Virus record (IMG/VR): IMGVR_UViG_3300022602_001838
Coordinates: 17,548-81,547 of that record
Reading direction: 5' to 3' (one strand)
Length of the DNA: 64,000 nucleotides
From: a virus
In this document: one piece after another, positions 33,072 through 48,668 of the stretch
How positions within the stretch are numbered: the first letter of the stretch is position 1
Layout: every line of letters starts with the position of its first letter
Made by a program: the position numbers and the translations under genes
Notes under the pieces: model-generated
Seen by the model: only the letters and a program-made list of their open reading frames with translations
Database searches by the model: none
What the model was told of the DNA's origin: nothing

Positions 33072-33107
33072 TGTTGAATTCTACAGGAATTTTAGAGGAA
33101 AATAAAT

Positions 33108-33197
33108 GCTCACTTTACCCAGAGAATGGCGTTTATCTGGGATTCGGCAGCAGCCGCCGACACCTTCGTAACTAAGTACGGTCCTAAGGTAGGTGTT
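33108..33197 (-). ncRNA. candidate structured RNA of unknown class
   Basis: GC-rich intergenic with stems ACACCU/AGGUGU, CGUA/UACG, CGGCGG/CUGCCG, CCCAGA/UCUGGG. Confidence 0.5.
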
Positions 33198-33735
33198 AAG
33201 AATATTTAGCGCGGAATGTAGCGTATAGGCTATATCTACTGGAATCTTTGACTGGATTAAGCATACCGTGTGGTAATCGTCTGTTGCAAATAGTTATGTA
33301 ACCTGAATTTGGTACGAAAGCACAAGTATGTCTGCCTTTAGTAGTATACCAAGTAGTGCCAATATATGGGTCTAGACTTTGAATATAGACCTGAAAATGT
33401 GCATATACAACATTATCATCTTCGTGGAATGGAATCATATAACCAGGATCGTCACGCCAGACTCTGACCTGATTGCATTGTATGTTTTGATTGTCTAGTA
33501 GTTCAATGATACCAGACATATCAACTGAGGTCAATTCTTCTAAGATGCCATCATTGACCCAAGTCAATTCTTGTCTTAAATTACTTGCTGTACTTTGTAC
33601 AAATGCTTCTTGGTCTAGCCCAAGCACAGTTTGTTTGATGTATTCAAAATCAGCAGAGTCAAAAAATTGACCAACACTCCATAGCCCATCGTCCAAAGGT
33701 ACTACGTCTGATAGATTTAACTTGAGTTTTTTCAT
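33196..33735 (-). CDS. 2OG-Fe(II) oxygenase
   Basis: HED...H...RYS. Confidence 0.7.
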   Translation of the reverse strand: MKKLKLNLSDVVPLDDGLWSVGQFFDSADFEYIKQTVLGLDQEAFVQSTASNLRQELTWVNDGILEELTSVDMSGIIELLDNQNIQCNQVRVWRDDPGYMIPFHEDDNVVYAHFQVYIQSLDPYIGTTWYTTKGRHTCAFVPNSGYITICNRRLPHGMLNPVKDSSRYSLYATFRAKYS

Positions 33736-34694
33736 TAGAATAAGTCTGGGTTTTGGTCAGCAAAGTCACGCATCAACACACCCGCTTGTGCGTTGGCTTC
33801 GTTCTCGATCTCACTGCCAGTATCACCGTCGCCTGGTTGAATTCTGTCTTCTTCACGTTGTTTGTGATGTGTGAGTTCGTGACCCAATGTTCGCAGCATA
33901 TCCATGATATGACGATCTCGGTATGCTACTTGTACGGTATTTGTATTTGGATCAAATAGACCAAATGTTGGATGTTCTGTAGAACCAATCTCTGCTACAA
34001 GTTTAATCTTTGGTAGTCGTTTAATACCCAAAGATTTAACGCAGTGTTTGACAAAGTTGTTGCCAACTCGATGTAGGTCTGGCTCGGCAGATTCTTTTAA
34101 GTGTTCTTTTTGGAATGTGTCAGCAAAGGCCTTACACATTTTTTCAATATCTGGATTGTTTGTGAAGCGAATATCAAAGTCGTTGTGCTCAACTTCTTGA
34201 TGTTCTGGATCACGGTATCCGCAATAGACCACTTTAACAGGAGTAGTTTCAATCAGTTCGTTGCAGCTAATGCCCTGTCTGTCTGGCATATCATCTACAC
34301 AAGGACTCAGTGTAGTAACAATCACAGCATCTTCGGGTATCTCGCCATACATACTCTTGAACTTGTCTAGTGCTCTGCGTTCAGCATGTGCCCACTTACC
34401 TTCAAAATGGCTAGTGGCGCAGACCTTTTTACCGTCGCCGATTACCGCAGCAGCAACAAGTCCACTACCACTGTCTTTGCGTTTGTTTTTGATGATCAGA
34501 TCGCAGAGTTCTACTAGAACATCATCATAATCAGTTTCTTGTGATTCTGCTAGATCAAATGCTTTGAGATTCTTTTGTATCTGTCCTGGACGAACATCCT
34601 TGGTCAGACTCATACTATAACGAGGGTCTTTAGCTTGTGATTTCGTAGCAATCACGCCAGTACCACCAGCCTCAAACAACTCGTAGATATTCAT
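33735..34694 (-). CDS. modular protein: zinc deaminase plus HExxH metallopeptidase
   Basis: MNIYELFEA; HAE..TLSPC..C (RibD/CDA-like); TLGHELTH..E.EAN. Confidence 0.75.
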   Translation of the reverse strand: MNIYELFEAGGTGVIATKSQAKDPRYSMSLTKDVRPGQIQKNLKAFDLAESQETDYDDVLVELCDLIIKNKRKDSGSGLVAAAVIGDGKKVCATSHFEGKWAHAERRALDKFKSMYGEIPEDAVIVTTLSPCVDDMPDRQGISCNELIETTPVKVVYCGYRDPEHQEVEHNDFDIRFTNNPDIEKMCKAFADTFQKEHLKESAEPDLHRVGNNFVKHCVKSLGIKRLPKIKLVAEIGSTEHPTFGLFDPNTNTVQVAYRDRHIMDMLRTLGHELTHHKQREEDRIQPGDGDTGSEIENEANAQAGVLMRDFADQNPDLF

Positions 34695-35134
34695 TTCAAG
34701 ACGCTTCTTAACATCCAGCTGTGTTTGCGATGTGCGTCCATACGCTCTGCTAAGAAGTTGCTGAATCCGTGTTCACCTTCTGCCTCAGCAACATCATAGA
34801 CCATCTTTAACAAGATGCACATTTTGTCGCTGTCTTCTAGCAACATAGTGACCATAGCACCATCTGGGATGACTTCGGTTTGGTCTTCAATACGAGTAAG
34901 AACACTCAACTTGCTCAAACTACCTGGAGCGTAGCAGTCTAAGGCGCGCAACTTTTCAGCAAAGTCATCTATGATGCCATAGACTTCTTCGTAGATGTTT
35001 TTAAATAGTTCGTGGAACTGTTGAAAGTGAACACCTTCGACATTCCAGTGAAACTCGTGTGCCTTAAGATAGAAAGCAAACTCGCTGGCGAATGCGATTC
35101 TGGCTGCTTGCTGTAGTTGTGATAGTTCTTCCAT
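34691..35134 (-). CDS. dps: Dps/ferritin-like protein
   Basis: HEFHWNVEG..F...H..F..IY....D..AE; HRKHSWML; TATAAATA 4 nt before ATG. Confidence 0.88.
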   Translation of the reverse strand: MEELSQLQQAARIAFASEFAFYLKAHEFHWNVEGVHFQQFHELFKNIYEEVYGIIDDFAEKLRALDCYAPGSLSKLSVLTRIEDQTEVIPDGAMVTMLLEDSDKMCILLKMVYDVAEAEGEHGFSNFLAERMDAHRKHSWMLRSVLK

Positions 35135-35141
35135 ACTGTAT

Positions 35142-38100
35142 TTATATAATGTCGTATCCAGCTCGTTTCATAGCATAAAGACGACTTTCCATGATTTCAT
35201 CTTCGTCAAATGGTAACTCTGTTTGCAACTCTTCTGGATCGTGCAACAACTCTTGTGTATGTCCCGGAGTTACCTTCATTGGGGCATTAGCTGGATTTTT
35301 CAATCCTCTGAGCTGACTTATCAAAGCATCTTTTTGGATTGTTAGTCTGGCTTTTTGACTTGAATCATCCCCGTAACTTCCAGGTATTTTATCCAACTGT
35401 TTTTGAATCAATTTGATCTGTTGCTGTAACTGTGTGATTGAGTCGTGATCATTGCTCTTAGCTGGAGCTGCTACTGGTGCTGGGGTAGGATGAACTTGTT
35501 GTTTTAGTTCATCTTTAGCAACTGGTTTGTCCAACTCTTTTCTAATCACTTCACGCTCTTTGCTGTCTTGGTCTTTTTTCTGTTGAACTGGCACATCTGC
35601 GGCACGGACTTTGCTTGGCAAAGTTTGTGTTTTGACTTGATCAACTCGTTGACTCAATCTGCGTAACAAATCTTGTTGCTGTTTGTTAACAGTTTCAACA
35701 CCCTGTAACTCTCGTTCAGTACTGTCTAGTTCTGAGCTTAATGGATCTAGTTGACGCAAAATTTTGTTGACCTGTGCGTAGTTGTCTCTGGTCTGTTTAG
35801 CAACCCCGCTCAAATATCCAAACACTGCGTCTGTATCGCTTTGTGCTTCTGGGTTAGTACGGCGAGCAACTCTGATTAGTTCTTTACCAGCTGGGCTAGA
35901 GATAGCTTCGTTGGTCTTTTGCTTTTGTGGTTGTTGACGTTGTTGTTTGCGTTTTTCTTGTTGAGCAACACGTTTGACCATGTCTTGATACTCATCACCA
36001 TAATCAGCTTCTTGGTCTTTTTTCTTGCTTTCACCCAAGCTGCCCATACCACTACCACCCACTGGGCTAGTTGTGTCTGTGACTGGAGCAATGCCGCCTC
36101 CGCCAAAGCCGCCACCGTATTGATCCTCACGAGTGTAGTTTCCAATTGGCTGCAGGATAAAATCCTCTGCACTTAACTTTTGTCTTGTTGGATCAGCTTC
36201 TGCTTTATGAACATATGTGTCGATGACTCGTTTAGCCATGATGTGATTAACTGCCTTAGCAACTATGATTTTTTTATTACTACGGTGTGGATTATAAATC
36301 ACATTGACTTTTTGATCTGAGTGGAATATTCTAGACTCATCCACTTCGCCTCCTGGACTTGCACTACCCACTTGTTGTCCATCAGAGTTCATAATAAATA
36401 TGGCCTCATTGCGAGCATTGGCAAGTTCTTGAGCCGCTTGAATAGCATCGCCTCCTCCCCAAAATTGACCAAGCATTGTGCCTTGCGCATCTGTTAGATT
36501 GAATGAATCGTCGTCGGTGTCATCGTTGTATTCATTTTCCTGTGGTCTTGCACCGCCTACACGACCTGCATCGTCATTTACAAACACATGGATGTTGCGT
36601 TGATTTGCATATTGCTGTGCGGCATCTAGTGCATCTTCTTCTGAACCATTTATGATATCAATAAGACCACCTTCGCTGTTTGTTAAACTATATTGACCCT
36701 GCGCAAGTCTTTGTTCTTGGTCTGCTGTGCGCTGACTTGTAAACTTGGCTGCATCGGCTTTTGGAGCTGCCTTAGTGCCTGGTAATGGAAGTGGTTTACT
36801 TGTATCACCACGCAGTGCTTTAACAGCATCAACAAATCCTGGATCTGTTTGTTTAATGGTCTGCATATAGCCAATACCAACAGCATTCTTATCACGGTTC
36901 TCGTTATACATACCAAATGCACTACCACGTTCAGTACCATGAGCGCTGAATTTATCAGCAAACTGTTCCAAGGTACTTCGTTTTGTTGGGAACATTTCGA
37001 GGCGTAAGAAGTTTTCTGGTGCTGCCGAAGCAATATTTTCTTTTGTTGCTGTAGCAAATCCACTATCTGCTAACAATCGTTCGCGGGCACTTGGATCTGG
37101 TACAACTTTGACAGTTATTCTACCAGTCCCGTAGTTAGATTTTGCCCAATATTTGGCAGCTTCTATTGCTTGTTCTGGTGTGCTACCACGAGTCGTAACA
37201 ACATCAACAAAACGAACTGGAATACCACGAGCCGCAATAGAACGAATATCAGTTAATGCCAATTTATCAGAGTTTGAAACTTCAGGAGCTTTCATCATCT
37301 TGACCAACTTACCAACATATTCATCACGATAGGCAGTTGGATCACTTGCGATAATCATGGCACGAACAAAACGGCCCACTGTGTTGGCAATATCTGCTGC
37401 CTTGCTCAAATAGTCACCACCTGCGTGTCTGAATGAAACATACTTGCCGTTAAAGTTGACTGTGGCAAAGTGATCGTCGCTGATGCGTTTGACCATCTCT
37501 TTCATTTCTTTTTCTGCGTCTTTGAATGTGGTAGAACCAACAGTTGGCAAACTACCGTTGCCCTTTAGATTATTGATAACACTGCGAGCATAGCTGTTGT
37601 TTTCACGACCAAACTGTTTCAACACATAGTTGTCACCAATGAATGTTGCCAACTTTAGCACATCAAGTTTGTCCGGAATACTGACATTGATGTGTAGGCC
37701 AGTAGAGTTGTTGGTATAGAAGTTTAACTGTTGTGCTTTCTGATACCATGTGCGTAGTGCTGTCATTGCAGCATCTGCCTTCAGTGGGGGACTAACAACC
37801 TCTGCTGCATAATCGCCCTGATTTGGGCGCAAGCTACCGTCTGGTTCAATATACCAACGGTCAAGTTTCTTTGTTGCTTGGTGATACCCTCGGAAGATTT
37901 CCATGTTGTCACCAAACACATCTTTAAGATTTGCCTTCAAAAACTCAGCGCCGTCCATGTAATCGCCACTGTGGCTACTGCGTCTGCGTGGTGCTAAACT
38001 TGCTGGTTCAGCGGCCCCGGGAGTAACATAGTACCAAAGTTTTTCTTTTAGAGTGTCTGTGTTGTTATTAACGCGACCTTTGAATGCCCACTTGGTCTTT

Positions 38101-39146
38101 AACAAGTCTTTGAGATTGTCTGTGCCCATTGTTTCTGTGCAAAAATCAGCAAAGTGTTGTTTAAATTTATTAAGAAGTTCTGGAGTTTGCTCTTGTCTAT
38201 AACTCCAGCCTGGAATATATTCACTGTAAAATTCATCTCTGCGACCATCTTCGGCGTTAGCAACTTGACTGCAACGACCGTCCACTGGACCAGTAGTAAC
38301 ACGATAGCAATGAAGCATTGCATCTTTGATTTGTGTGATTACTTCGGGGGTCAACGCACTTTTTGCAACACGGCCACTGAAATCAATATCAGTATAATCT
38401 TTGAGAACTCTGATGACAAAATCACGAGCGTTGACATCCACGGGATTACCCTCTGCGTCTCTGCCATATCTGCGTTCAGCGTCACCGTTCATAAAATAAG
38501 CCGTCATATTTTTGAACTCACGGTCTTTTAACAGTTTTTTTAATTTTTCTAAGATTGGGCTGCCTCTTTCGTCATTTGCTATAAGGTCCCTGACTTTTGT
38601 TTCTGCCCAATTTCTATAGTGCGCCCAAACGCTTTTGTACCCACCAGATGCAACCTGAACGCTGCTTTTATACTTGAACAAGTCATCAAAGACTTTTTGA
38701 AATTTATCGCTACCATGTGCGGTACGCAGAATACCATCTATCAAATCGTTTGTGGTCTTGCCCTCAATCCATGTAATACTGTTTGGATCATAGCCCGCTG
38801 GCACTTCTTGTGGGCCCTCTTTCCATGCTTTTACAGTTCGTACTGGAATCAGTGTTTCAAACTCAAAACCAACCAACACACCTTTTTCAGCACCCTGACT
38901 AATAGCCTGAGCAAACGCTGAGGGGTTCATGGCTACTTCGTCAATATTGTCTTCTGTGACAGCCTCTTCTTCCATACTGCCGATTGGACTAACATCATTG
39001 TCTGTGCCCCAAGTAGCACTGACGCCATTGCCATCAGCCAATGCACCATCGATGCCGTTATTCTCTTGAACACCCATCATTAGACCATTAAAGTCTTCGG
39101 CTAGTGTGTTCTTCTTGGTGCCTTCAAATAATGTGTATAAGTTCAT
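35142..39146 (-). CDS. large modular protein with putative amidoligase (COOH-NH2 ligase) domain
   Basis: GFEFE, IEPDGSL, AEVVSPP, TNNSTGLHINVS, SFRHAGG; MNLYTLFEG start. Confidence 0.75.
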   Translation of the reverse strand: MNLYTLFEGTKKNTLAEDFNGLMMGVQENNGIDGALADGNGVSATWGTDNDVSPIGSMEEEAVTEDNIDEVAMNPSAFAQAISQGAEKGVLVGFEFETLIPVRTVKAWKEGPQEVPAGYDPNSITWIEGKTTNDLIDGILRTAHGSDKFQKVFDDLFKYKSSVQVASGGYKSVWAHYRNWAETKVRDLIANDERGSPILEKLKKLLKDREFKNMTAYFMNGDAERRYGRDAEGNPVDVNARDFVIRVLKDYTDIDFSGRVAKSALTPEVITQIKDAMLHCYRVTTGPVDGRCSQVANAEDGRRDEFYSEYIPGWSYRQEQTPELLNKFKQHFADFCTETMGTDNLKDLLKTKWAFKGRVNNNTDTLKEKLWYYVTPGAAEPASLAPRRRSSHSGDYMDGAEFLKANLKDVFGDNMEIFRGYHQATKKLDRWYIEPDGSLRPNQGDYAAEVVSPPLKADAAMTALRTWYQKAQQLNFYTNNSTGLHINVSIPDKLDVLKLATFIGDNYVLKQFGRENNSYARSVINNLKGNGSLPTVGSTTFKDAEKEMKEMVKRISDDHFATVNFNGKYVSFRHAGGDYLSKAADIANTVGRFVRAMIIASDPTAYRDEYVGKLVKMMKAPEVSNSDKLALTDIRSIAARGIPVRFVDVVTTRGSTPEQAIEAAKYWAKSNYGTGRITVKVVPDPSARERLLADSGFATATKENIASAAPENFLRLEMFPTKRSTLEQFADKFSAHGTERGSAFGMYNENRDKNAVGIGYMQTIKQTDPGFVDAVKALRGDTSKPLPLPGTKAAPKADAAKFTSQRTADQEQRLAQGQYSLTNSEGGLIDIINGSEEDALDAAQQYANQRNIHVFVNDDAGRVGGARPQENEYNDDTDDDSFNLTDAQGTMLGQFWGGGDAIQAAQELANARNEAIFIMNSDGQQVGSASPGGEVDESRIFHSDQKVNVIYNPHRSNKKIIVAKAVNHIMAKRVIDTYVHKAEADPTRQKLSAEDFILQPIGNYTREDQYGGGFGGGGIAPVTDTTSPVGGSGMGSLGESKKKDQEADYGDEYQDMVKRVAQQEKRKQQRQQPQKQKTNEAISSPAGKELIRVARRTNPEAQSDTDAVFGYLSGVAKQTRDNYAQVNKILRQLDPLSSELDSTERELQGVETVNKQQQDLLRRLSQRVDQVKTQTLPSKVRAADVPVQQKKDQDSKEREVIRKELDKPVAKDELKQQVHPTPAPVAAPAKSNDHDSITQLQQQIKLIQKQLDKIPGSYGDDSSQKARLTIQKDALISQLRGLKNPANAPMKVTPGHTQELLHDPEELQTELPFDEDEIMESRLYAMKRAGYDII

Positions 39147-40231
39147 TTCGTTTGTCCTGGAACAGGGTTCTGCTGTGCAGTATTTGTGCTTTGTTGTGGT
39201 TGTTGACCCGCTGGCTGATTGGTACCAGTTTGTTGCTGTGCCTGTTGAACTTTAAGTTCTTTTTGCTTGTCTACTGTATCTGCTTTGGTAATCAACTGTT
39301 TCATTTGTGCAGCAGTCTGTGGGTTTTGCAAGGCCTTGCTTGTAGCAACTGCCAATGGTTCCATTTGCTTTAACTCTTGTGCATTTAAATCAGTGTTTGG
39401 CTTGTCATCAAGTTTAGTCATAGTATCACTGAACTTGACTTTATTTAATGGCTGCGCTGCACCCTGTTGATTTAATGCTGTAGATAACTGATTGGTATTC
39501 TTTTGAATCTGTTGCTGATCCATTTTCTGTTGTTGAGCTTTTGGATCGGGATTTTGATTTGTACTACCTTGTGGGGCTTGACTAGCAGCACCATAGCCAC
39601 CAGTGCCACCATACTCGTTCAAGTCTTCTTTATCTTGCCACCAGTATTTTTGACCTGCCTGCGTAGCTTTGGTTGGACGAGCTTTTGCTTTTGGACCACG
39701 ATAGCCACGTTCCCATGCTGCTGCACCTGCTGCTGCTGATTTGCCCTGTTTAACAAAGTGAGCAATCACTGCCTGCTTGCTGTCTAGTTCTTCTGCTATG
39801 AGTTGATTTATAAATGACTCGTTGATTTCGACTGGCATCATCTTACAAACTTCTTTTTTGGTCTCTATCTTAGCACTGGGCACACGTTGTTTCAACATCA
39901 TCAAGTCTTGTTCTGCTTGTCCAAGATTGTTATATTTTGACGCTGGCTTATCATTTACATAAAGAACAAACTCGTCTGCACTTTCTTTAAACTCTTGGAA
40001 CTCACGCATTAATTGATGTGCGTTGGTACGAGGATTCTCTACTAGTGCTTTTTCTAGGTCTTTGATAATGCTTTCTTCTGCACTGCCACCAACCATTTTG
40101 TTCTTGGCCTGGCTTGCTTTGTCAGTGCCTTTCCAGTATCCAGGAAACTTTGGACCCGTTGGCTTCTTAGTATCGCTTTTCATACTTTCGTCAATGCGGG
40201 CTAACTTGCCCAACAGGTCTCGCATACTCAT
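39143..40231 (-). CDS. modular Q-rich hypothetical protein (probable virion protein)
   Basis: Many hydrophobic-x-E sites (IDES, FKES, INES, LNEY); Q-rich C-terminus. Confidence 0.6.
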   Translation of the reverse strand: MSMRDLLGKLARIDESMKSDTKKPTGPKFPGYWKGTDKASQAKNKMVGGSAEESIIKDLEKALVENPRTNAHQLMREFQEFKESADEFVLYVNDKPASKYNNLGQAEQDLMMLKQRVPSAKIETKKEVCKMMPVEINESFINQLIAEELDSKQAVIAHFVKQGKSAAAGAAAWERGYRGPKAKARPTKATQAGQKYWWQDKEDLNEYGGTGGYGAASQAPQGSTNQNPDPKAQQQKMDQQQIQKNTNQLSTALNQQGAAQPLNKVKFSDTMTKLDDKPNTDLNAQELKQMEPLAVATSKALQNPQTAAQMKQLITKADTVDKQKELKVQQAQQQTGTNQPAGQQPQQSTNTAQQNPVPGQTK

Positions 40232-41418
40232 CTTTTAATCATCCCTGATTTCTTTGGCTTTTTGGCTTTGAATGGACTGTTCTTTTGGCTATAGTTACCA
40301 CCAAACAATGTACCAACATTGCTGCCTTTACCAACGCTCATAGATGTAGCAATACCACCAGCACCGCCACCTGCACTGGCAAACTCCATCAATTTGCTTT
40401 CAAACATCTCAGCATAGTCTGGGCTTTCCTTCATACCAGGATAGCGCTGTTTGCCGGGCTGTCCTTCGTTGCCATCATCACGAATTGGATGTGCTTCGTC
40501 ACTGTAGTTGCCTCTTGGCATTTTTTGCGCCACACTTTGCTTTTGTAGATAAGCATAGTTGGTTACCAGGTCGCCTGGAAAGTCTTCGTTATACGTAAAT
40601 AACATACGAGCACGACGGTCACCTAGTTCATCACGAGCAATAGTATATGCCGCTCCTAATACTTCTTCAGCAGAACCTGACGAAACTAAATTGGGATTTT
40701 CATTAAAGACTTGTTGTGCCAACTGTTCTGCATAATTAGAGCCTTCCGCCACACCTTGATCGCCTTTGATAGAAAAAGGTTTCATTCCCATTTTCTGTCT
40801 AAGCACATTGATTTCTTGTATGGTTCTGAACTCACCATCTTGACATTTCAAACGCATAGGTTCATTCTCGTCCCACGATGTGAATTTTCCGCGTTTGTTT
40901 ATTGCCGGGGTAGCACTAGCACGGCCATCCAATCCTTCCGTCATGCCTTGTTCAAACATACCAGATTGGCCACGATGCATTTCTTTTTCGCTGATCAAAT
41001 ACTGCATAACGCTGGTCAACATACCTTTGGCAGCGCCCATCTTTTCTGCTACCCATTCAGGAATATCATCATCGGCACTGATATTTTTGTTTAAGTACAC
41101 TGCCACGCGGTGTATGGTGTGTAGGCTGTTTTTAAATGTAGAACCATCATGCTCGGGTTCGCCGATGAATTCTTCGCCCACGCCTTGCTCACCAAGCCCA
41201 TGTACTCTCAACGACTTCTCGTAATGAGATTCTTCATCGTTTGCTGGCTCATCGTCAAAATCATCAAAATCCCCATCAAATTCTTCTTCATCGTGATTGC
41301 CGTGCAAATCGTTGTAATAATCTTCATCACTGTCATAGTTATGAGGATTGATTTCATTGACGGTCTTGATAGATTCTGTCATCAATTTATTAATGTTAAA
41401 AAGATCGTTGGTTTTCAT
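40228..41418 (-). CDS. modular hypothetical protein with QGxxEG linkers
   Basis: QGVGEE, QGMTEG, QGVAEG; CATAAATA upstream. Confidence 0.65.
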   Translation of the reverse strand: MKTNDLFNINKLMTESIKTVNEINPHNYDSDEDYYNDLHGNHDEEEFDGDFDDFDDEPANDEESHYEKSLRVHGLGEQGVGEEFIGEPEHDGSTFKNSLHTIHRVAVYLNKNISADDDIPEWVAEKMGAAKGMLTSVMQYLISEKEMHRGQSGMFEQGMTEGLDGRASATPAINKRGKFTSWDENEPMRLKCQDGEFRTIQEINVLRQKMGMKPFSIKGDQGVAEGSNYAEQLAQQVFNENPNLVSSGSAEEVLGAAYTIARDELGDRRARMLFTYNEDFPGDLVTNYAYLQKQSVAQKMPRGNYSDEAHPIRDDGNEGQPGKQRYPGMKESPDYAEMFESKLMEFASAGGGAGGIATSMSVGKGSNVGTLFGGNYSQKNSPFKAKKPKKSGMIKR

Positions 41419-42566
41419 ATTATTTTATCCGTGTTAGCGTATTTATGCGAAAAACAATCCGCCGCCTCTGACATTGACTTCCCCGTTTATAGTCATATTT
41501 TGTGTGTAAAATACTGGGTCAGAGTTACATTCACGCACATACAATCTGTGCGCCCCTGGTTCAATATTAATTTCGATGTGTTCTCTAATGAATACATCGT
41601 ATGCAGCCCAAGTCCAACTGCGTTCTGTGAGCATTTCATCATCAACATAGATGCGGTAGCTGGGCTGGCCTTCGCTACGACTGCAATAAACATCCACAGT
41701 TAAACTTACTGCTGCCATTATTTTGCCTTCTTCATACCAGCAATCAAGGCAAGCTCTTGATCAATACTTTGGACCACGCTTTCTGTCAGACCTTGCTTAT
41801 GAATGAATCCACGACTATTTTGTGGAACATTTGTGGTGCAAAACTTGCCGCATACTTTGCCAGTTTTGTCAGTAGCGTGATGAGTCCACTCTAGATCATT
41901 TTTTGGTTTAATAACATTCAACCCTTGCGATTTTGCGTCATCTGTCCAAGATTTCAAATCTCGGTGCAACACTCTGCCTTCTGCCACACCTTGCTTGATG
42001 CTTTTAAGAATAGATTTAGCCTGGGTGCTAGAATCATATGAGCCAATTTGAGTGTTGACTCTTCCCATTGCTTGGAGAATTTTTCCATCGGCAGCATAAT
42101 GAGTGACCTTGCCACCTTTTACTCTGAACAATATGCCGCGAAAACTATAAATGCCATCCGGTTTGCTTACTGACTTATCAATAATTAAATTTACATTATC
42201 GTTATCTAACACCCCGTACTGGATTTTGCCTTCCGCCACACCTTGCTCCCAAACTTTAGAACCAGCACCTTTATTCTTGTCCCAGAAATGTGAGCCGGCA
42301 TCTGTTTGGTGTTGACTACGATTGATTCTAAAGCCTTTTGCTTTGAGCATATCATACACTGTTTGAGCGATGCCTTGCCCTCTGTATTCAGGTGTTACAG
42401 ACATATCCTGTGCTTCAAGATCATGGCCAAGCATATCAAATGTAAAGCCTGCCACTTGTTTTCCGCCCAATGTAACATCAACATAAAGTTCTTCACCTGC
42501 TGTTTCTATGTTGAATTTCATCTTGGGTTTGACGAATTTGTCCAATAAGCCTTCCGCCAAGCCGCC
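40741..42566 (-). repeat. dispersed 18-bp coding repeat CAAGGTGTGGCGGAAGGC (QGVAEG)
   Basis: Exact at 40741-40758 and 42228-42245; one mismatch at 41976-41993; degenerate at 40933, 41170, 41778, 42549. Confidence 0.85.
41443..41718 (-). CDS. hypothetical beta-rich protein
   Basis: P.YRIYVDDE; resembles 43196-43672. Confidence 0.6.
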   Translation of the reverse strand: MAAVSLTVDVYCSRSEGQPSYRIYVDDEMLTERSWTWAAYDVFIREHIEINIEPGAHRLYVRECNSDPVFYTQNMTINGEVNVRGGGLFFA

Positions 42567-43169
42567 GCCCAAATACTTGTCTAGTATTTGTCTTGCCACT
42601 GCTGGATTGCGAGGATACAGGTCTGCGATAATGGCATTCTTTTGTGCATCATCTGCTTGTGGCCACATTGTGCGTATTTGTGTAGCACTGGTTACTCCAC
42701 TGGGGCCTGCATCAAACTGTACAGTTGGCAAGTAGACCATGTAACCATGTTGACTCATTGGAGCAAGATTGCCCTTGTGATATGGTTGTAGATAACTGGG
42801 AGTACCGTCTTTTTTGACACCACCTGCCCCTGGTGGTTCATTGCGATCTTTTTCGCTACGTGCAAAGATCAACACAGTATTATCAGGATCGTATTGACCA
42901 GTAACTTCTTTTGCTACAAAAGGGCTTTTTACCAGTTGGAAGTTCTTGGGGTTCACACCAGCGATCTGAGCAAGTTTTTGCTTTTCGGCAAATGGAAAAG
43001 GACGATCTTTACGGTCGTCCGTTGCTACATAAACGATGTGTGCTCCTGGGAATGCTTGCTCTGCTGCTCGGTACAAGCTCAAGTGTCCGGGGTGAAATGG
43101 GTGAAAACCCCCTGGGATTAAGACCAGGGTTTGTTTTTGCTGTGCTTCAAAAAGATCAAGAATGAACAT
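41718..43169 (-). CDS. modular protein: HxGH nucleotidyltransferase, GNAT and two unknown modules
   Basis: MFILDLFEA; PGGFHPFHPGH and SATQIR; VTPEYRGQGIA; linkers GLAEG, QGVAEG twice, QGLTES. Confidence 0.8.
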   Translation of the reverse strand: MFILDLFEAQQKQTLVLIPGGFHPFHPGHLSLYRAAEQAFPGAHIVYVATDDRKDRPFPFAEKQKLAQIAGVNPKNFQLVKSPFVAKEVTGQYDPDNTVLIFARSEKDRNEPPGAGGVKKDGTPSYLQPYHKGNLAPMSQHGYMVYLPTVQFDAGPSGVTSATQIRTMWPQADDAQKNAIIADLYPRNPAVARQILDKYLGGGLAEGLLDKFVKPKMKFNIETAGEELYVDVTLGGKQVAGFTFDMLGHDLEAQDMSVTPEYRGQGIAQTVYDMLKAKGFRINRSQHQTDAGSHFWDKNKGAGSKVWEQGVAEGKIQYGVLDNDNVNLIIDKSVSKPDGIYSFRGILFRVKGGKVTHYAADGKILQAMGRVNTQIGSYDSSTQAKSILKSIKQGVAEGRVLHRDLKSWTDDAKSQGLNVIKPKNDLEWTHHATDKTGKVCGKFCTTNVPQNSRGFIHKQGLTESVVQSIDQELALIAGMKKAK

Positions 43170-43195
43170 ATTATACGCCTATAGCGTATTTATGC

Positions 43196-43672
43196 TCACA
43201 TTGTTTCTAGAAGCCAGATGTAGAAGGGGTTGGTCCAAGTCAAAGACCAAGCACCGTTCCAGCCCATATTCACACATTTGTTGATGGTCTGAGTAGTTTC
43301 GCCTTTGTAAACCACTGGCATCTTGGTTGTATAAACCCCGTGATCGTAAGGAATCATACCTAGATCAATCTCATCAATCTCAACGCTGACAACATTCAAC
43401 AGCATATCTGCTACGATTGTATAGTTGTCGGGATCAGTGTCATTGTCTTTTTTAGTGTCTGAGGGTTCTTTGTTCAACAACTCAACTTTGAGTGTGGCAT
43501 TGTCAGTGGTGTACTCTACATCAAACTCGTGATATTCGACTACCCCTGTTTCTGCCTGTACGCTACCCTCAGACAACACAGCTTCATTGAAGCTGATACG
43601 ATACTGGGGACGTTTGTCCCAGTACGTACCACTCAGACCCAGTTTGATGTGAATCTTTTCTAGGTCTGCCAT
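43196..43672 (-). CDS. hypothetical protein
   Basis: 158 aa; PQYRISFNE; ends PFYIWLLE. Confidence 0.6.
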   Translation of the reverse strand: MADLEKIHIKLGLSGTYWDKRPQYRISFNEAVLSEGSVQAETGVVEYHEFDVEYTTDNATLKVELLNKEPSDTKKDNDTDPDNYTIVADMLLNVVSVEIDEIDLGMIPYDHGVYTTKMPVVYKGETTQTINKCVNMGWNGAWSLTWTNPFYIWLLETM

Positions 43673-43674
43673 GT

Positions 43675-44580
43675 TTATGCCTTTTGTGGACCTGCAACTG
43701 GTTGACCAGCTTTGGCCATACCGATAGCGTCAAGCAGAGCCTGAGGAGCCCCTTGTGGCACACCGTGATCTTCGCCGTGATACTGATTCTTGGCCTGACC
43801 AACAATGTCCAACTTGCTAAGATCGCCTTGGAACTCATAGTGTCCAATGTGATTCAACAAGACCTTGCTGTGTGCCCAAATCTCGCCACCCAGCTTTTGC
43901 CAACGACGGCAGAACAACCAGTCTTCTGACAAGTAGTGACCACGCTCATCGATCTCACAATCAAAGATCGAGTACATCATTGGCTCGTATTGTTTGCCTA
44001 GGCCTACATCGTCAACATATTTTGTATCTGGATGTGCAGCAATCAACTTCTCATAGACCTGACGCTTGAACAACAAGAAGCCTGTACCAGCTGTGTCAAC
44101 TGTAAAGATATCGCCCTGAATCTTAGTTTCTGGTTTCAAGTTAATAACATAGTTGACTGGCAACGCTTTCTTGGGATACAGACCAGCAATGACTTCTTTG
44201 TCGCAGGCCAACATTTTCAAGATAGCATCTGGTTCAAAGCGAATGTCAGCATCAATAAACATAAAGTGAGTTGCTGTTTGATTGGTCATCATTTTGGCCA
44301 TCAAGTTGTTACGACCACGAGTGATCAACGACTCGTTAACCATTGTATCTAGTGACCAGTTTAACCCAGCTTGTTGTGCCAACAAGATGAAACGCAACAG
44401 ACTTGTGACTGTTGGTTCGCTCATCATACCACCATAACATGGGATACCGATGTGCAAATGAACTTGTCTAAAGTCGAAGGGAACGCCCTGCGGTTGTGCC
44501 TGAGCTTGCTGTGCTTGTTTAGCTGCCGCTGCCTTGATTAGGTTAACGGCGTCACTTTGAGATTTTTTCTTGTCTGTCAT
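43675..44580 (-). CDS. GT-A fold glycosyltransferase-like protein
   Basis: IPCYGG, RGRN, FIDAD (DxD), GTGFLL, LSEDW.FC, HIG. Confidence 0.75.
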   Translation of the reverse strand: MTDKKKSQSDAVNLIKAAAAKQAQQAQAQPQGVPFDFRQVHLHIGIPCYGGMMSEPTVTSLLRFILLAQQAGLNWSLDTMVNESLITRGRNNLMAKMMTNQTATHFMFIDADIRFEPDAILKMLACDKEVIAGLYPKKALPVNYVINLKPETKIQGDIFTVDTAGTGFLLFKRQVYEKLIAAHPDTKYVDDVGLGKQYEPMMYSIFDCEIDERGHYLSEDWLFCRRWQKLGGEIWAHSKVLLNHIGHYEFQGDLSKLDIVGQAKNQYHGEDHGVPQGAPQALLDAIGMAKAGQPVAGPQKA

Positions 44581-44793: not shown

Positions 44794-45534
44794 TTATTGG
44801 AGGTGATCTATGGGGTGAATTTTTCCTACGATGCCAGGACTAATCAATGATAAAATAGTTGCAATACTGTCATCGTTTGCGTAGATGTATGCTCCCCAAA
44901 GGGCTGGATACTTTTTCTTTAGATGTGTCAGTACACCTCCTGGGATTTTAACATCATCTCGGGCGGTTAACTGTGCCAGAATACTTCGTTTGGTTTCTAA
45001 TGGGTAATTTCCGTCTCGCAACACAATCTTGTATTTGTATTCCGTTTTGTTCAGAAACACCACATTGTTGCGCAACGCATCTTCTGTGCCAGGTTTGGGT
45101 ATGTTGATACTATACAAGTTGTCGTAAGAACTGATAGCTTCACTTATGATCTTTAGATCATATTCTGTTTCAGCATATACTTGTAGCATATTGCCCTCAG
45201 TTCTAAACTTGACTATGTGTTTGTGTGTTTTAATCACAGTGCGAACACGGTCAATCAAAAACTCATCAACATCATCCCAGTTAATATAAGGGTTGTAGGT
45301 ATAATTATTACTAGATTGATAGAAACCGCGATAGCCCATGCCTGCGTTGCCACTATTAGCAGCAAGTCTATGCTTTATAACATAGGCAACGATATCCTCA
45401 CAAAACTTGTCAGTGGCTAGATTTACCTTTTTTATATCATACACCAACCGCCACAAGTAGCGGTTGAAGTATTGTTTTTTGGTAGTCTCTAGCTTGATAT
45501 TGTGATTTAGATTAACCCAATACGATGAATCCAT
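44794..45534 (-). CDS. hypothetical phage protein
   Basis: About 246 aa; start uncertain; overlaps clpA end. Confidence 0.6.
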   Translation of the reverse strand: MDSSYWVNLNHNIKLETTKKQYFNRYLWRLVYDIKKVNLATDKFCEDIVAYVIKHRLAANSGNAGMGYRGFYQSSNNYTYNPYINWDDVDEFLIDRVRTVIKTHKHIVKFRTEGNMLQVYAETEYDLKIISEAISSYDNLYSINIPKPGTEDALRNNVVFLNKTEYKYKIVLRDGNYPLETKRSILAQLTARDDVKIPGGVLTHLKKKYPALWGAYIYANDDSIATILSLISPGIVGKIHPIDHLQ

Positions 45535-47803
45535 TTTCATCCACTTGAGGTTGATGGGTAGTAATCGTACTGAATTCAAACTTGTCATCGTTGAAATCAA
45601 TTTCGACTGTGTTGTTTGGAGCGATGCCTTCGAACAAGATTTTCTTGCTCAATGGAACTTTGATTAGTTCGTTGATCTTACGACCCAACGGACGAGCACC
45701 CATCTTGCTGTCATAACCAACTGTGGCCAGATGATCAACTGCTGCTTCGCTCAAACGAACTCTTATACCCTTTTCAGATAACAAGTCGTTGAGTTCGTTG
45801 ATAAACTTGGCAACGATTTTCTTGACACTGAATGTATCCAACTTGTTGAACTTGCAGATAGCATCAATACGATTGCGGAACTCTGGCTTAAAGTAGTCTT
45901 TGACTGCTTTGTCATCTTCGCCACTGCGCTCAAGATCACGACCAAAGCCGATTGCATTACGCTCATTAGCGGCAGCACCCAAGTTACTAGTCATAATAAT
46001 GATAGCATTACGAGCATCTGCTTTTTTACCACTGCTGCTTGTGACTGTACCTTCATCCATCAGACTCAGCAACACATTGCTAACGTCTGGGTGAGCTTTT
46101 TCGATCTCGTCAAACAAGATGATACTATTTGGATTCTTTTCCAAATCACTGATCAACAGGCCACCACCCAAGTTGCCGTCATCATAGCCAACATAGCCAG
46201 GGGGCGCACCAATCAGTTTGGCTGCTGTGTGTTTCTCTTGATATTCGCTCATATCATAGCGAACAAGTTTCATACCCAAGTTGTCAGCAAGCAATTTAGC
46301 CAGTTCTGTTTTACCAGTACCTGTTGGACCCAAGAACAAGAAACTTCCAATGGGCTTGTTCACAGATTTCAACCCAGCACGACTGACATAAATCTTTTCA
46401 AGCACATTCTCAACGACCTGATCTTGACCATAGAGCTTAGTGCGAATGTTTGATTCGAGGCTTTCTAGACTCTTGACTGCTTCGCTGCCAATCTGCTCTG
46501 CTGGAATCTTGACTGCTTTGGCAATAGCTTCAACGATGTTGCTTTTCTCACAGACTCGTTGACCTTGCACAGAGATTTTGAGTTTGGCACAGGCAGTGTC
46601 GATCAGGTCAATTGCCTTGTCTGGCAAACGTTTGTCTGACTGATAACGTACACTCAGATCCACTGCTGCATCAATGGCTTCGTCTTCAATCTGAACTTCG
46701 TGGAATTTTTCAAAGTGCTCACGCAGACCACGCAAGATTTCTTTTGACACTGTGGGAGTGGGCTCATCTACGCCCAAACGATAGAAACGGCGCATTAACG
46801 CACGATCTTTTTCAAAACTTTGGTTATATTCTTCCCACGTTGTACTTGCGATGACCTTGATAGTGCCCTTAGTCAATGCTGGCTTAATCATATTGGCAAA
46901 GTCAACTGAACTTTGTGCACCACTGCCAGCACCCTGCATTTGATGTGCTTCATCAATGAACAAGATACACTTGCCTTTTACAGTCAGTGCCTTGATAACA
47001 TCTTTGAACTTTTCTTCAAACTCACCACGATACTTCGAACCAGCCAACAATGAACCAATGTCCAAGTTGTAAACGTGATAGTCACGCAGATAATCTGGTA
47101 CGTTGAGTTGAACAATGTTCAAGGCTAAGCCTTCTGCAATAGCAGTTTTACCCACACCAGGATCGCCCACCATCAAGACATTTGACTTGTTGCGTTTGGC
47201 CAGAACGTGTGTGATTTCTTCAAGTTCGTATTCACGACCGATCACTGGATCAATCTTGCCTTCAAGTGCCAACGCATTCAAATCAGTACAATACTCATTT
47301 AGAATGTCTGTGGCCTTTTTGTCATTGGCTGTTTTACGACCAGTTTTTGCGTTGTAGAAGTGATTGTAGTATTCAATGAGTTCATCACGGTCTTCGATAC
47401 CATATTTCAACAAGAAGTAAGCAGCCTGACTGTTTGTTTCTTGACTGATACTGATGACCAAATCGATCACAGTCAGACTACGGCGAGACGAGAACAAGAC
47501 CTGTGTCAGCGCACGATTTAGCACACGCTCAACGCTGTGAGTTCTGCGCGGAGTTGTATTTTCTTCGCTGATTAAGAATGTTTGCTGGGCCAGATAAATT
47601 TCGACGTCCTGAGACATTCCCTGAATATCGACTCCATAGTTGTCCAGAAGTTTACCGAATGGTTCATAAGTGATGATACCATACAGAATGTGTTCCAGAG
47701 TTACATATTCGTGATTATAGTATTTGGCCTTTGCGGTGGCCGAATCGATGATTACTTCGATTTCGGGATTGGGTTGGATCATCTTATCGTTTTCCGTTGA
47801 CAT
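45512..47803 (-). CDS. clpA: ClpA ATP-binding subunit
   Basis: N-domain; GDPGVGKT; GPTGTGKT; RLPDKAIDL; IGF loop; no ClpB M-domain; TATAAATA upstream. Confidence 0.9.
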   Translation of the reverse strand: MSTENDKMIQPNPEIEVIIDSATAKAKYYNHEYVTLEHILYGIITYEPFGKLLDNYGVDIQGMSQDVEIYLAQQTFLISEENTTPRRTHSVERVLNRALTQVLFSSRRSLTVIDLVISISQETNSQAAYFLLKYGIEDRDELIEYYNHFYNAKTGRKTANDKKATDILNEYCTDLNALALEGKIDPVIGREYELEEITHVLAKRNKSNVLMVGDPGVGKTAIAEGLALNIVQLNVPDYLRDYHVYNLDIGSLLAGSKYRGEFEEKFKDVIKALTVKGKCILFIDEAHQMQGAGSGAQSSVDFANMIKPALTKGTIKVIASTTWEEYNQSFEKDRALMRRFYRLGVDEPTPTVSKEILRGLREHFEKFHEVQIEDEAIDAAVDLSVRYQSDKRLPDKAIDLIDTACAKLKISVQGQRVCEKSNIVEAIAKAVKIPAEQIGSEAVKSLESLESNIRTKLYGQDQVVENVLEKIYVSRAGLKSVNKPIGSFLFLGPTGTGKTELAKLLADNLGMKLVRYDMSEYQEKHTAAKLIGAPPGYVGYDDGNLGGGLLISDLEKNPNSIILFDEIEKAHPDVSNVLLSLMDEGTVTSSSGKKADARNAIIIMTSNLGAAANERNAIGFGRDLERSGEDDKAVKDYFKPEFRNRIDAICKFNKLDTFSVKKIVAKFINELNDLLSEKGIRVRLSEAAVDHLATVGYDSKMGARPLGRKINELIKVPLSKKILFEGIAPNNTVEIDFNDDKFEFSTITTHQPQVDENGFIVLG

Positions 47804-47819
47804 GGGTCCTCACAAATAT

Positions 47820-48668
47820 TTATAGAGTTGATTTGATTTTGTTTACCAGTTCCAGCTGCTCTTGTGAGAGATTTCTTGGAACAGTAACGTTGATTTTAAC
47901 AATTAAATTGCCTCTTGTCGAGCCGTGAAGTGCCCAAATACCCTGATTTTTCACTCTGAGCATTTGTCCGGGCTGTGTGCCTGGGGGAACTGTAATAATA
48001 AGTTTACTGCCCTCAAAATTGGTCACTTCAATATCTCCGCCAGTGATTGCTGTCAAACAGTCAATGTCGTGGAACGTGCCCACATCCTGCTCCATAACTT
48101 CAAAGTTTGGGTGTGGCTGCATAATAATCTGCACGTACAGATCACCACGAGTAAGAGTGTCAAAGAAGTTATCACCCAATCCTGGATACTTGATTTGGGT
48201 ACCCTGGACTGCGCCTCTGGGCACAGTGATTTCTACGTTCTCTCTGGTACCTTTTGTGGTCTGTATGCTGACTGTGACATTTTGGTCTTCCATAATACTG
48301 GCCAGTGTCACTGCTACTCTGACCTGTAAATCTTTGTTGCGTCTGGGTTGGTGTTGTCTGAATGGATTTTGCCCACCAAAGTTGAAACCAAAGTTGCGCA
48401 ACATTTCTTCCATATGCGGTGGCATACCATCGTGTATGTCGTGACCATTTACATTGAATCTGAATCCACCGGGATTGCGGCGTTCGTGGTCATACTGCTC
48501 ACGCTGTGCTGGATCACTCAGAACCCTGTAGGCACCTTCAATCTCTTGGAACTTGGCAGTGTCCCCGCCCTTGTCTGGATGATGCTGACTGGCTAACTTG
48601 CGATAAGCTCGTTTGATTTCTTCTGGTGTGGCATTCTCACCAACGCCCAGTGTATTATAGTGTGTCAT
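47820..48668 (-). CDS. dnaJ: class B J-domain protein (DnaJ/CbpA-like)
   Basis: HPD motif, G/F region, C-terminal domains, no Zn finger. Confidence 0.88.

Follow-up and report, generated by a model that had tools for sequence, protein, structure and literature searches.

The window analysed here, a stretch of 64,000 nucleotides (nt), covers positions 17,548-81,547 of the IMG/VR virus record IMGVR_UViG_3300022602_001838, and coordinates follow the window numbering. The whole record has 81.5 kb and a CheckV completeness of 23%. The element in question is an 18-mer, CAAGGTGTGGCGGAAGGC, which is present on the minus strand in two copies without mismatches and in a third copy with a single, silent mismatch (GCA for GCG). 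The three copies are read in frame as QGVAEG within two minus-strand open reading frames (ORFs), referred to as gene A and gene B, which also carry four degenerate versions of this linker (Table 1). The linkers are spaced by 107, 84 and 66 codons in gene B and by 79 and 64 codons in gene A, and the sequences that flank the 18-mer copies present no DNA relatedness to each other.

A search of the window for CAAGGTGTGGCGGAAGGC with up to 3 mismatches retrieved these 3 matches, when 0.04 were expected, and none of 100 shuffled sequences reached 3; the 81.5-kb record as a whole holds the same three and no others. Concerning the peptide, the pattern G[VLIM][AGTS]E[GS] was searched in window ORFs of at least 80 amino acids (aa), and the six matches found are all inside genes A and B. 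The GC content of the linker is 67%, versus 42.7% for the window. The initial annotation of this DNA had reported the identity of the 18-mer in two genes, the one-mismatch copy, the degenerate copies at 40933, 41170, 41778 and 42549, the reading frame, the spacings and the unrelated flanks, and all of this was borne out, so the linker repeat is confirmed and highly non-random.

In gene B, Pfam assigned residues 18-99 to CTP_transf_like (E 3e-5), and a GNAT match at residues 225-280 fell below the cut-off. The AlphaFold model of this protein, built on a 19-row alignment (mean pLDDT, predicted local distance difference test score, 60.9), is confident over residues 10-200 and 216-290, with pLDDT <50 at residues 1-9 and 203-215, which flank the confident domains. 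The gene A product had no match in Pfam or PHROG. A CATAAATA motif is located 17-18 nt 5' of the starts of both genes, and it appears to resemble the T4 late-promoter consensus, TATAAATA.

Table 1. Features of the putative cargo block and extent of blastn matches of related loci, in window coordinates (nt, nucleotide identity)
Feature	Position	Strand	Remarks
Gene B, 483-aa polyprotein	41718..43169	-	Leader, NMNAT-like nucleotidyltransferase, GNAT, two orphan modules, 20-aa tail
CATAAATA motif upstream of gene B	43187..43194	-	T4-late-promoter-like
Gene B leader MFILDLFE/A	43146..43169	-	Resembles T4 capsid-targeting sequence; predicted cut after E8; pLDDT <50 at residues 1-9
Degenerate linker GGLAEG (GGC GGC TTG GCG GAA GGC)	42549..42566	-	Predicted cut after E206; pLDDT <50 at 203-215
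GNAT module, residues 207-313, mobile cassette	42231..42551	-	93.7% nt identity to L010, with other neighbours there
Exact 18-mer linker QGVAEG	42228..42245	-	Predicted cut after E313; breakpoint in blastn and lake contigs
Orphan module 3 of gene B, 84 aa	41979..42230	-	No Pfam match
Linker QGVAEG, one silent mismatch (GCA)	41976..41993	-	Predicted cut after E397; L023 match (98%) starts at 41998
Orphan module 4 of gene B, 66 aa	41781..41978	-	In L023 shares one gene with gene A module 3
Degenerate linker QGLTES	41778..41795	-	Predicted cut after E463; followed by 20-aa tail conserved with L004
Gene A, 396-aa polyprotein	40228..41418	-	Acidic N-part, two modules, 171-aa C-part
CATAAATA motif upstream of gene A	41440..41447	-	T4-late-promoter-like
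Degenerate linker EQGVGEE	41170..41190	-	Predicted cut after E82; L022 match (91%) starts at 41189
Degenerate linker QGMTEG	40933..40950	-	Predicted cut after E161; L022, L024 and L025 matches end at 40928-40934, L023 starts at 40952
Exact 18-mer linker QGVAEG	40741..40758	-	Predicted cut after E225; L023 match (98%) ends at 40738
Three further block genes with similar leaders (362, 1334 and 319 aa)	33735..40231	-	Without codon-locked linker
362-aa Q-rich block gene	within 33735..40231	-	Leader MSMRDLL
1334-aa block gene	35142-39146	-	Leader MNLYTLFE/G; amidoligase domain
Ferritin/Dps-like gene	34691-35134	-	Pfam E 1.7e-20; no leader; inside the block
319-aa block gene	33735-34694	-	Leader MNIYELFE/A; deaminase domain and HExxH
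Match of L004	43998 to 42565; resumes 41765-41389		80% nt; gene B head and tail kept, internal modules replaced
Matches of L005, L007, L008 (with L004)	42549-42566		End at GGLAEG linker; L010 match begins there
Match of L010	42557-42226 only		93.7% nt; GNAT module alone
Matches of L009, L019, L020, L021, L067, L006, L125	42226-42230		End here
Match of L023	40952-40738 and 41998-41895		98% nt
Matches of L022, L138	41189-40928		91% nt
Matches of L024, L025	40928-40934		End here

Phage relatives and codon spelling of the linker

The initial annotation had proposed a search of related phage genomes for the 18-mer, and this search found exact copies in at least 119 IMG/VR stretches. In the loci examined, 165 of 166 exact copies are read as QGVAEG, and 160 lie in ORFs of at least 150 aa. 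The 18-mer is also carried by five large uncultured records (262-374 kb, 76-100% complete), whose DNA polymerases are 69-80% identical to that of the window. When up to 3 mismatches were allowed, these relatives contained 2-7 copies each, on one strand and clustered in few genes, versus none for a reversed-pattern control.

Three of the five relatives (G001, G003 and G004) encode a gp21-type prohead protease of the Peptidase_S77 family (PF03420, E 1e-25 to 1e-27), adjoined by a gp23-type capsid protein (PF07068, E ~1e-98). A RecA/UvsX-like gene is present in four of the five records searched. Tyrosine integrases (PF00589) were found in none of the five, three of which are 97-100% complete, while the positive control for this search matched 14 of 14 genomes, and serine recombinases (PF00239) were likewise found in none of the five.

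Among cultured phages, the DNA polymerases nearest to that of the window are those of Sinorhizobium phage Phosso (52% identity) and Agrobacterium phage Atu_ph07 (48%), followed by a 349-kb Vibrio phage (45%) and GAP32 (44%). Comparison of positions 40200-43200 with 50,697 phage records by blastn gave no match, and tblastn of gene B in the cultured-phage search gave three weak partial matches only. When the 15-nt core of the linker, defined below, was searched with up to 2 mismatches in Phosso, Atu_ph07, Vibrio phage 2.275.O, GAP32 and LR756508, 2 matches were obtained versus 2 for the reversed-pattern control, which is the level of chance. No cultured model phage carries the linker system. The metagenome runs that hold the window are labelled as freshwater or lake water, and the best explanation for its origin is an uncultured giant T4-like lake phage of around 350 kb.

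Regarding the spelling of the linker, codon usage was calculated from the 50 window ORFs of at least 200 aa. In this set GCG accounts for 6.9% of alanine codons and GTG for 20.5% of valine codons, and the usage of the remaining linker codons is 41% for GGT, 63% for CAA, 70% for GAA and 34% for GGC. With these frequencies, the probability of the linker spelling given the peptide QGVAEG is 8.8e-4, and that of two random spellings being identical is 2.8e-3. As a control for ascertainment bias, sites in the relatives were counted only in ORFs holding another clear linker, which left 367 motif sites, 278 of them GVAE. The spelling GGTGTGGCGGAA is present at 222 of these 278 sites. Even at the 185 GVAE sites other than the exact 18-mer, the same codons predominate (GGT at 175, GTG at 147, GCG at 143 and GAA at 160), and the preceding codon is always NAA (CAA, GAA or AAA). 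The comparison with genome codon usage that had been suggested for this repeat thus shows rare codons that do not vary freely in the relatives. Peptide variants such as GMAE, GVTE and GVSE look like point-mutation descendants of one master spelling in progressively more decayed states.

This codon lock was absent from similar peptides elsewhere. The LGVGE of the DnaJ protein (47820-48668) and the EGVAEA in ORF 48999-50354 (GGT GTT GCA) are spelled differently, the LFE sites of the leaders use free codons (TTA TTT GAA, TTG TTT GAG, CTT TTT GAA), and the old junction after the NMNAT domain drifts in orthologs (LAE, VAE, LAE, VDE, IKE, VAE). The argument of the initial annotation that selection on the peptide alone would not fix the wobble bases is upheld by these unlocked leader sites, NMNAT ends and non-linker GVAE sites. 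A sequence of the form Y(A/N)TLGV(A/G/S)E, located close to the N-terminus of a conserved protein of 282 aa, was considered as a capsid-protein cut site and discarded, as it is the DnaJ J-domain that serves here as a non-linker codon control. An internal translation start within the linker was also rejected, given that the GTG is separated from AAGG by just 1 nt and is not followed by any start codon.

Breakpoints and module turnover at the linker

Positions 33001-44000 of the window were compared by blastn with 148 loci, and the resulting matches start and stop at linkers: the ends of the matches of L004-L010, L019-L025 and L125 are all within a few bases of one (Table 1). In a single gene of L023, gene A module 3 and gene B module 4 are found together with a new module, each joined by QGVAEG.

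The same behaviour was found when junctions were compared with each other. From 380 unique junctions, 168 cross-locus pairs had at least 50% identity over 20 flanking residues, and these pairs have in common both flanks in 5 cases, only the left one in 79 and only the right one in 84. In the 163 one-sided pairs, the per-base identity drops from ~0.85 to ~0.27 exactly at the linker, where bases 2-16, AAGGTGTGGCGGAAG, belong to neither flank and constitute a 15-nt core. Regarding orthologous genes, it had been asked whether their module content is fixed. It is not, since similarity begins and ends at the linkers and 163 of the 168 pairs have one neighbour only in common.

The 161 polyprotein ORFs were divided into 558 modules, of which 236 are internal, with a median length of 77 aa (range 35-440). 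Strict clustering grouped the 558 modules into 447 families; a looser rule, under which 180 modules were chained into one family, was discarded. Recurrent families nearly always appear with different neighbours, as in family 1, in which the left neighbours differ in 5 of 5 cases and the right ones in 4 of 5. The 92 complete ORFs contain 1-8 linkers and have 77-1562 aa, the smallest consisting of a leader, a linker and one module.

Furthermore, some modules are much closer between phages than their genomic backbones. The GNAT module of gene B is 93.7% identical in nucleotides to that of L010, versus 69-81% for the ClpA-like gene; the L025 module reaches 95%, versus 67.8% for the DNA polymerase region; and the L023 modules are 98% identical to those of the window. 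L110 contains a perfect tandem duplication of a 201-nt unit formed by a module and its linker (833-1033 and 1034-1234). Its two copies are identical except for 2 nt in the linker (GTC GCA versus GTG GCG), which places an unequal crossover within the linker.

Alternative neighbours were also observed within single samples. Logan contigs from four lake runs, analysed without the uncovered parts in X10 and X12 and without the whole RNA run X24 (share 0.05), terminate or fork at 40739-40762, 41175, 41788 and 42228-42257, and their continuations differ within a single sample. In all four runs contigs end or branch at the 40741-40758 linker, and breaks also occur at 41788-41799, near the QGLTES linker. 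One X2 contig connects the beginning of the GNAT module with the last part of module 4 (side 50). For the junctions at 41976-93 and 42549-66, bridging contigs exist in other runs.

Direct observations are the repeat and its codon lock, the location of breakpoints at the repeat, the high turnover of its junctions and the tandem duplication. Breakpoints and junction pairs give good support to the proposal of the initial annotation that the linker is a recombination or insertion site at which modules are swapped in frame.

The locus L010 presents a further arrangement of the GNAT module of the window, which is found there in a 912-aa polyprotein (L010:4513-7251) together with a nucleotidyltransferase-like N-part, a segment with an HD motif (..HDTIEDT..) and a C-part with hydrophobic stretches. 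Both linkers of this polyprotein use the variant GTA GCA.

Predicted cutting, exchange and alternative explanations

The linker has the form of a hydrophobic residue, any residue and Glu, followed by Gly, Ser, Ala, Asp or Glu, and in this it is like the leader sites. In the relatives, the capsid proteins begin with MTQALLEG...ALLEG, and a core-region ORF adjoining the protease begins with MNKYEQLIEF. The leader pattern was found in 46 of 105 polyprotein N-termini versus 70 of 585 other ORFs, many of these 70 being clearly further leader-bearing neighbours; a leader is defined here by its sequence pattern.

Twin-arginine translocation (Tat) signals point in the same direction. The motif RRxF[LIVM] is present in 4 of the 558 modules, each time in an internal module and 3-7 residues downstream of the linker Glu, and the Pfam TAT_signal family matched 3 of 150 modules. 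The modules concerned (RRGFLKG..GAA) are number 2 of 5 in L021, 5 of 8 in L107, 1 of 4 in L134 and 2 of 4 in L137. A Tat motif also directly follows the leader in four single genes of these phages (L038, L052, L041 and L025); of the 10 contexts found there, 2 are not signals. Tat signals function only at a free N-terminus, and for this reason the linker and leader Glu sites are predicted to become N-termini. This suggests that some modules could enter the head, be injected and finally reach the periplasm through export by the host; Tat export of ejected phage proteins is not known to have been described, although no search aimed at it was made. The function of cleavage linker that had been attributed to the repeat is probable and is supported indirectly by the leaders, the hydrophobic-x-Glu form, the position of the Tat motifs and the low predicted confidence at the first linker of gene B. 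In the Pfam scan, 10 families were matched among 150 modules and at least 140 of the 150 had no match. HExxH motifs are present in the 33735-34694 gene and in the L025 ORF, neither with a Pfam peptidase match, and no built-in peptidase was found in genes A and B.

Taking all this into account, we consider it fairly likely that these genes encode head-cargo polyproteins in which the core of the linker doubles as a protease site and as portable microhomology through which modules are exchanged in frame. Genes A and B would be expressed late, and their short N-terminal leader, similar to the capsid-targeting sequence of T4, would carry the chain into the prohead. A gp21-type protease would then cut after Glu at hydrophobic-x-Glu sites, including that of GVAE/G, and modules of 60-200 residues would be freed as separate small proteins and ejected with the DNA. 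Host takeover or anti-defence is the probable function of these modules, a few of which have signals for export to the periplasm. At the DNA level, the 15-nt core AAGGTGTGGCGGAAG could be a portable, perfect and GC-rich homology common to the whole phage clade. UvsX-type general recombination may use it during co-infection and replication, which would allow in-frame exchange, insertion, deletion and duplication of modules between phages otherwise too diverged to recombine. In a genome with 42.7% GC, a rare and GC-rich spelling would make this patch of homology stable and specific. The silent positions would stay fixed as junctions are continually re-made by exchanges that require identity, and linkers that no longer recombine would decay by point mutation, as may be the case for the four degenerate copies in the window. 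The codon lock is read as the footprint of this continual re-creation because of the few stable junctions, the master-plus-decay pattern of the spellings and the gap in identity between modules and backbone. Cutting, packaging and ejection, as well as the identity of the exchange enzymes, are what we infer.

Should this reading be correct, one element of 15-18 nt would do two jobs, the release of the payload by the head protease as protein and the in-frame exchange between diverged phages as DNA. It would be a testable mechanism by which large virulent phages renew their injected anti-host arsenal, with the 'linker' idea of Botstein placed inside an ORF. The linkers would also mark the limits of hundreds of orphan mini-proteins that are likely to act in anti-defence or takeover, and would offer a scheme for building multi-cargo heads in the T4 packaging system.

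Several points weigh against this reading. A length of 15-18 nt is short for UvsX-type exchange, the paper on PeSL cassettes (early promoter plus stem-loop) referring in its discussion to patches of <50 bp (PMC2839356), so a helper enzyme may be needed. The loci L026-L144 were chosen by the exact 18-mer, which inflates identity, and in the loci picked by protein (L004-L025 and the window) the core is present at only 28 of 42 GVAE sites; some of the other 14, such as the DnaJ J-domain, are not linkers. Both neighbours are retained in 5 junction pairs, and in these the wobble identity of the linker (1/4, 4/6, 5/5, 10/12) is no higher than that of the flanks; these data fit renewal by recombination and argue against direct purifying selection, but they are very few, too few to decide. 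The tendency of variant spellings to be common to linkers of one locus is modest (6 sharing pairs versus 1.9 expected, p = 0.014). Concerning the head genes, neither gp21 protease nor gp23 was matched in G002 (342,865 nt, 99% complete), which holds 5 copies of the linker and whose DNA polymerase has 71% identity with that of the window, and the record of the window itself, a 23% fragment, contains no protease or capsid gene. The gene B model is uninformative for residues 300-483. As for the lake contigs, they cannot show frequencies, circles or recombination partners, and the contig joints 40758>42228, 40760>42228 and 41799>42227 were rejected as deletions, since their sides have 20-22 letters and they are probably due to the repeat aligning to either copy.

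Alternatively, a dedicated sequence-specific enzyme (an unrecognised nuclease, recombinase or homing-type system) could act on the 15-mer and drive cassette exchange, the silent bases being its recognition site; this would amount to a true integron-like system within genes. The element is short for general recombination (PMC2839356, discussion), conservation extends to all six wobble positions and to the adjacent NAA, as would be expected of a recognition site, the motif is confined to few genes per genome, and T4-like phages are rich in homing nucleases, with an HNH ORF adjoining the capsid gene in L150. This explanation seems unlikely given that tyrosine and serine recombinases were not found in the five records and no conserved candidate gene was seen beside the arrays, that the L110 duplication recombined two linkers differing at 2 nt, and that passive homology is equally compatible with linker decay through simple transitions and with the absence of additional conservation at stable junctions. 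A bolder version, which we regard as quite unlikely, would make the 15-mer an active cassette-exchange site for an unrecognised enzyme, possibly with module mini-circles, serving a library of hundreds of ejected mini-effectors common to a whole clade of giant lake phages, some of them re-exported by Tat after injection; the outcome would be an integron operating within a reading frame, with a site that is cut by a protease at the peptide level. The silent bases could also be fixed for RNA or DNA structure or for translation, through a two-tetrad G-quadruplex or a Shine-Dalgarno (SD)-like AAGG-N8-AAGG pause giving each module time to fold, with recombination as a side effect. It is true that the wobble G of GTG and GCG complete the second and third GG tracts (GG TGT GG C GG AA GG), that the GMAE variant GGC ATG GCG keeps this pattern and that the linker is richer in GC than the window. 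Nevertheless, the quadruplex is marginal (-1.36 kcal/mol) and absent from the minimum free energy structures of the three window copies with 40-nt flanks, and the anti-SD duplex has -5.7 kcal/mol versus -12.5 for a perfect SD. In addition, CAA and GGT are equally fixed despite being in loops or outside the G tracts, GVTE, GVSE and GTA GCA break the tracts and yet persist, and stable junctions show no extra conservation, all of which makes a structural or translational cause improbable.

Two further explanations were considered. If the linker were only a protease site, with no role in recombination, its DNA identity would reflect the recent descent of a few duplicated cassettes, and both the resemblance of the peptide variants to point-mutation descendants of one spelling (ACG, TCG, ATG) and the local duplication in L110 could be understood in that way. 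This is nonetheless highly improbable when one spelling is found across phages whose DNA polymerases are 69-80% identical at the protein level and whose flanking modules are unrelated, when the 163 one-sided pairs break at the linker, and when leaders and NMNAT ends are not codon-locked. The mosaic could also be an artefact of assemblers joining phages at a short repeat, considering that the relatives are all metagenome contigs and that De Bruijn contigs break at linkers. We find this extremely unlikely: 18 nt is below the usual k-mers and far below the read length, the 92 complete ORFs are open and in frame, the same junctions appear in contigs of different samples (L022, L024 and L138), the two window junctions mentioned above are bridged in other runs, and branching at a 30-mer, which includes module sequence, indicates real alternative neighbours.

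Known systems and neighbouring genes

In T4, the first 10 residues of IPIII are a capsid-targeting sequence that is removed by gp21, whose cuts follow a Glu and depend on little else, and the internal proteins (IPs) are mutually unrelated, injected and inhibitory to restriction enzymes (PMC9026906, PMC5694885, PMC3012670, PMC12373910). IPI, IPII, IPIII and Alt resemble the polyproteins described here in the short Glu-ended leader, the gp21-type protease encoded by three of the five large relatives, the predicted late expression and the T4-like relatives. The likeness could extend by analogy to the modules, since IPs are small, hypervariable, non-homologous products, carried in the head, ejected and active against restriction. 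In contrast, IPs are single genes with one leader each, whereas up to 9 modules per leader are found here, with an internal linker fixed at the DNA level and some enzymes among the modules. In phiKZ, 201phi2-1 and SPN3US, head and ejection proteins are cut at multiple x-x-Glu sites by a gp21-related protease (PMC9026906, PMC5694885), but these phages are of another lineage and have long propeptides, and no cassette arrays or codon-locked sites are reported for them.

At the DNA level, a comparison can be made with PeSL cassettes, which in T4-type phages were reportedly also treated by Comeau et al. in 2014. In these cassettes, short conserved DNA flanks unrelated ORFan payloads and acts as homology for insertion, deletion or replacement in T4-type phages without integrase, and their authors liken them to integrons, quote the 'linker' idea of Botstein and faced the same question about a dedicated enzyme (Arbiol et al. 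2010, PMC2839356). PeSLs are intergenic, consist of an early promoter and a stem-loop and have been shown to form mini-circles, (PMC2839356), while the linker has 15-18 nt, lies in an ORF, is read as protein, preserves the frame and is probably a protease site as well. PeSL features were not found at the linker, 165 of whose 166 exact copies are in frame in ORFs and which forms no stable hairpin.

Integrons need IntI and folded attC sites. The integron operating inside ORFs that the initial annotation had imagined is supported as an analogy only; as a mechanism it is not supported, in view of the 0 of 5 records with recombinases and the lack of an attC-like folded site. No attC-type imperfect palindrome was found at the module ends, the 15-18-nt element being non-palindromic and its flanks unrelated. 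Polymorphic toxin tips (CdiA, Rhs) and pilin minicassettes also have a conserved boundary, but there one segment is swapped from silent copies and the products are not strings of released proteins.

Exchange at conserved joints is also a feature of the glycine-rich motifs of T-even gp38 (Trojet et al. 2011, PMC3157838). Those motifs form the structural core of one folded domain in fixed order, in contrast to a linker that joins independent, unrelated modules, whatever their number and order. The polyvalent proteins of phages and conjugative elements (Iyer et al. 2017, PMC5512222) likewise combine unrelated effector-type domains, delivered with the DNA, mosaic and with predicted processing. Their multi-domain definition (2-15 unrelated domains) also describes gene B, with its nucleotidyltransferase, GNAT and two orphan modules. 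For these proteins, self-processing by a built-in metallopeptidase has been proposed, and the paper, in which the word 'linker' has 0 occurrences, describes no conserved joint at the DNA level (PMC5512222). No description of codon-locked linker polyproteins was found by literature searches that included a full-text search for the GVAEG motif.

Genes A and B are part of a block of five minus-strand genes running from 43169 down to 33735, whose leaders are, in order, MFILDLFE/A, MKTNDLF.., MSMRDLL.., MNLYTLFE/G and MNIYELFE/A, the second and third being weaker matches than the other three. The 20-aa C-terminal tail of gene B (..IDQELALIAGMKKAK; 41721-41780, minus strand) is kept in L004 despite the different internal modules, and its residues 463-482 are predicted to be helical; as in T4 Alt, this tail may act as a C-terminal propeptide. 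The 1334-aa protein presents long Gln/Lys-rich low-complexity stretches and many hydrophobic-x-Glu sites, without any codon-locked linker. The DNA of the ferritin-like gene is the most widely matched piece of the region, with blastn matches in 27 loci, and so this gene appears to travel with the polyprotein arrays. Directly upstream of the block (45512-48668, minus strand), lie the genes of a ClpA/B-type chaperone with two AAA domains (763 aa) and of a complete DnaJ (282 aa), in an arrangement that is syntenic in L004, L006 and L008.

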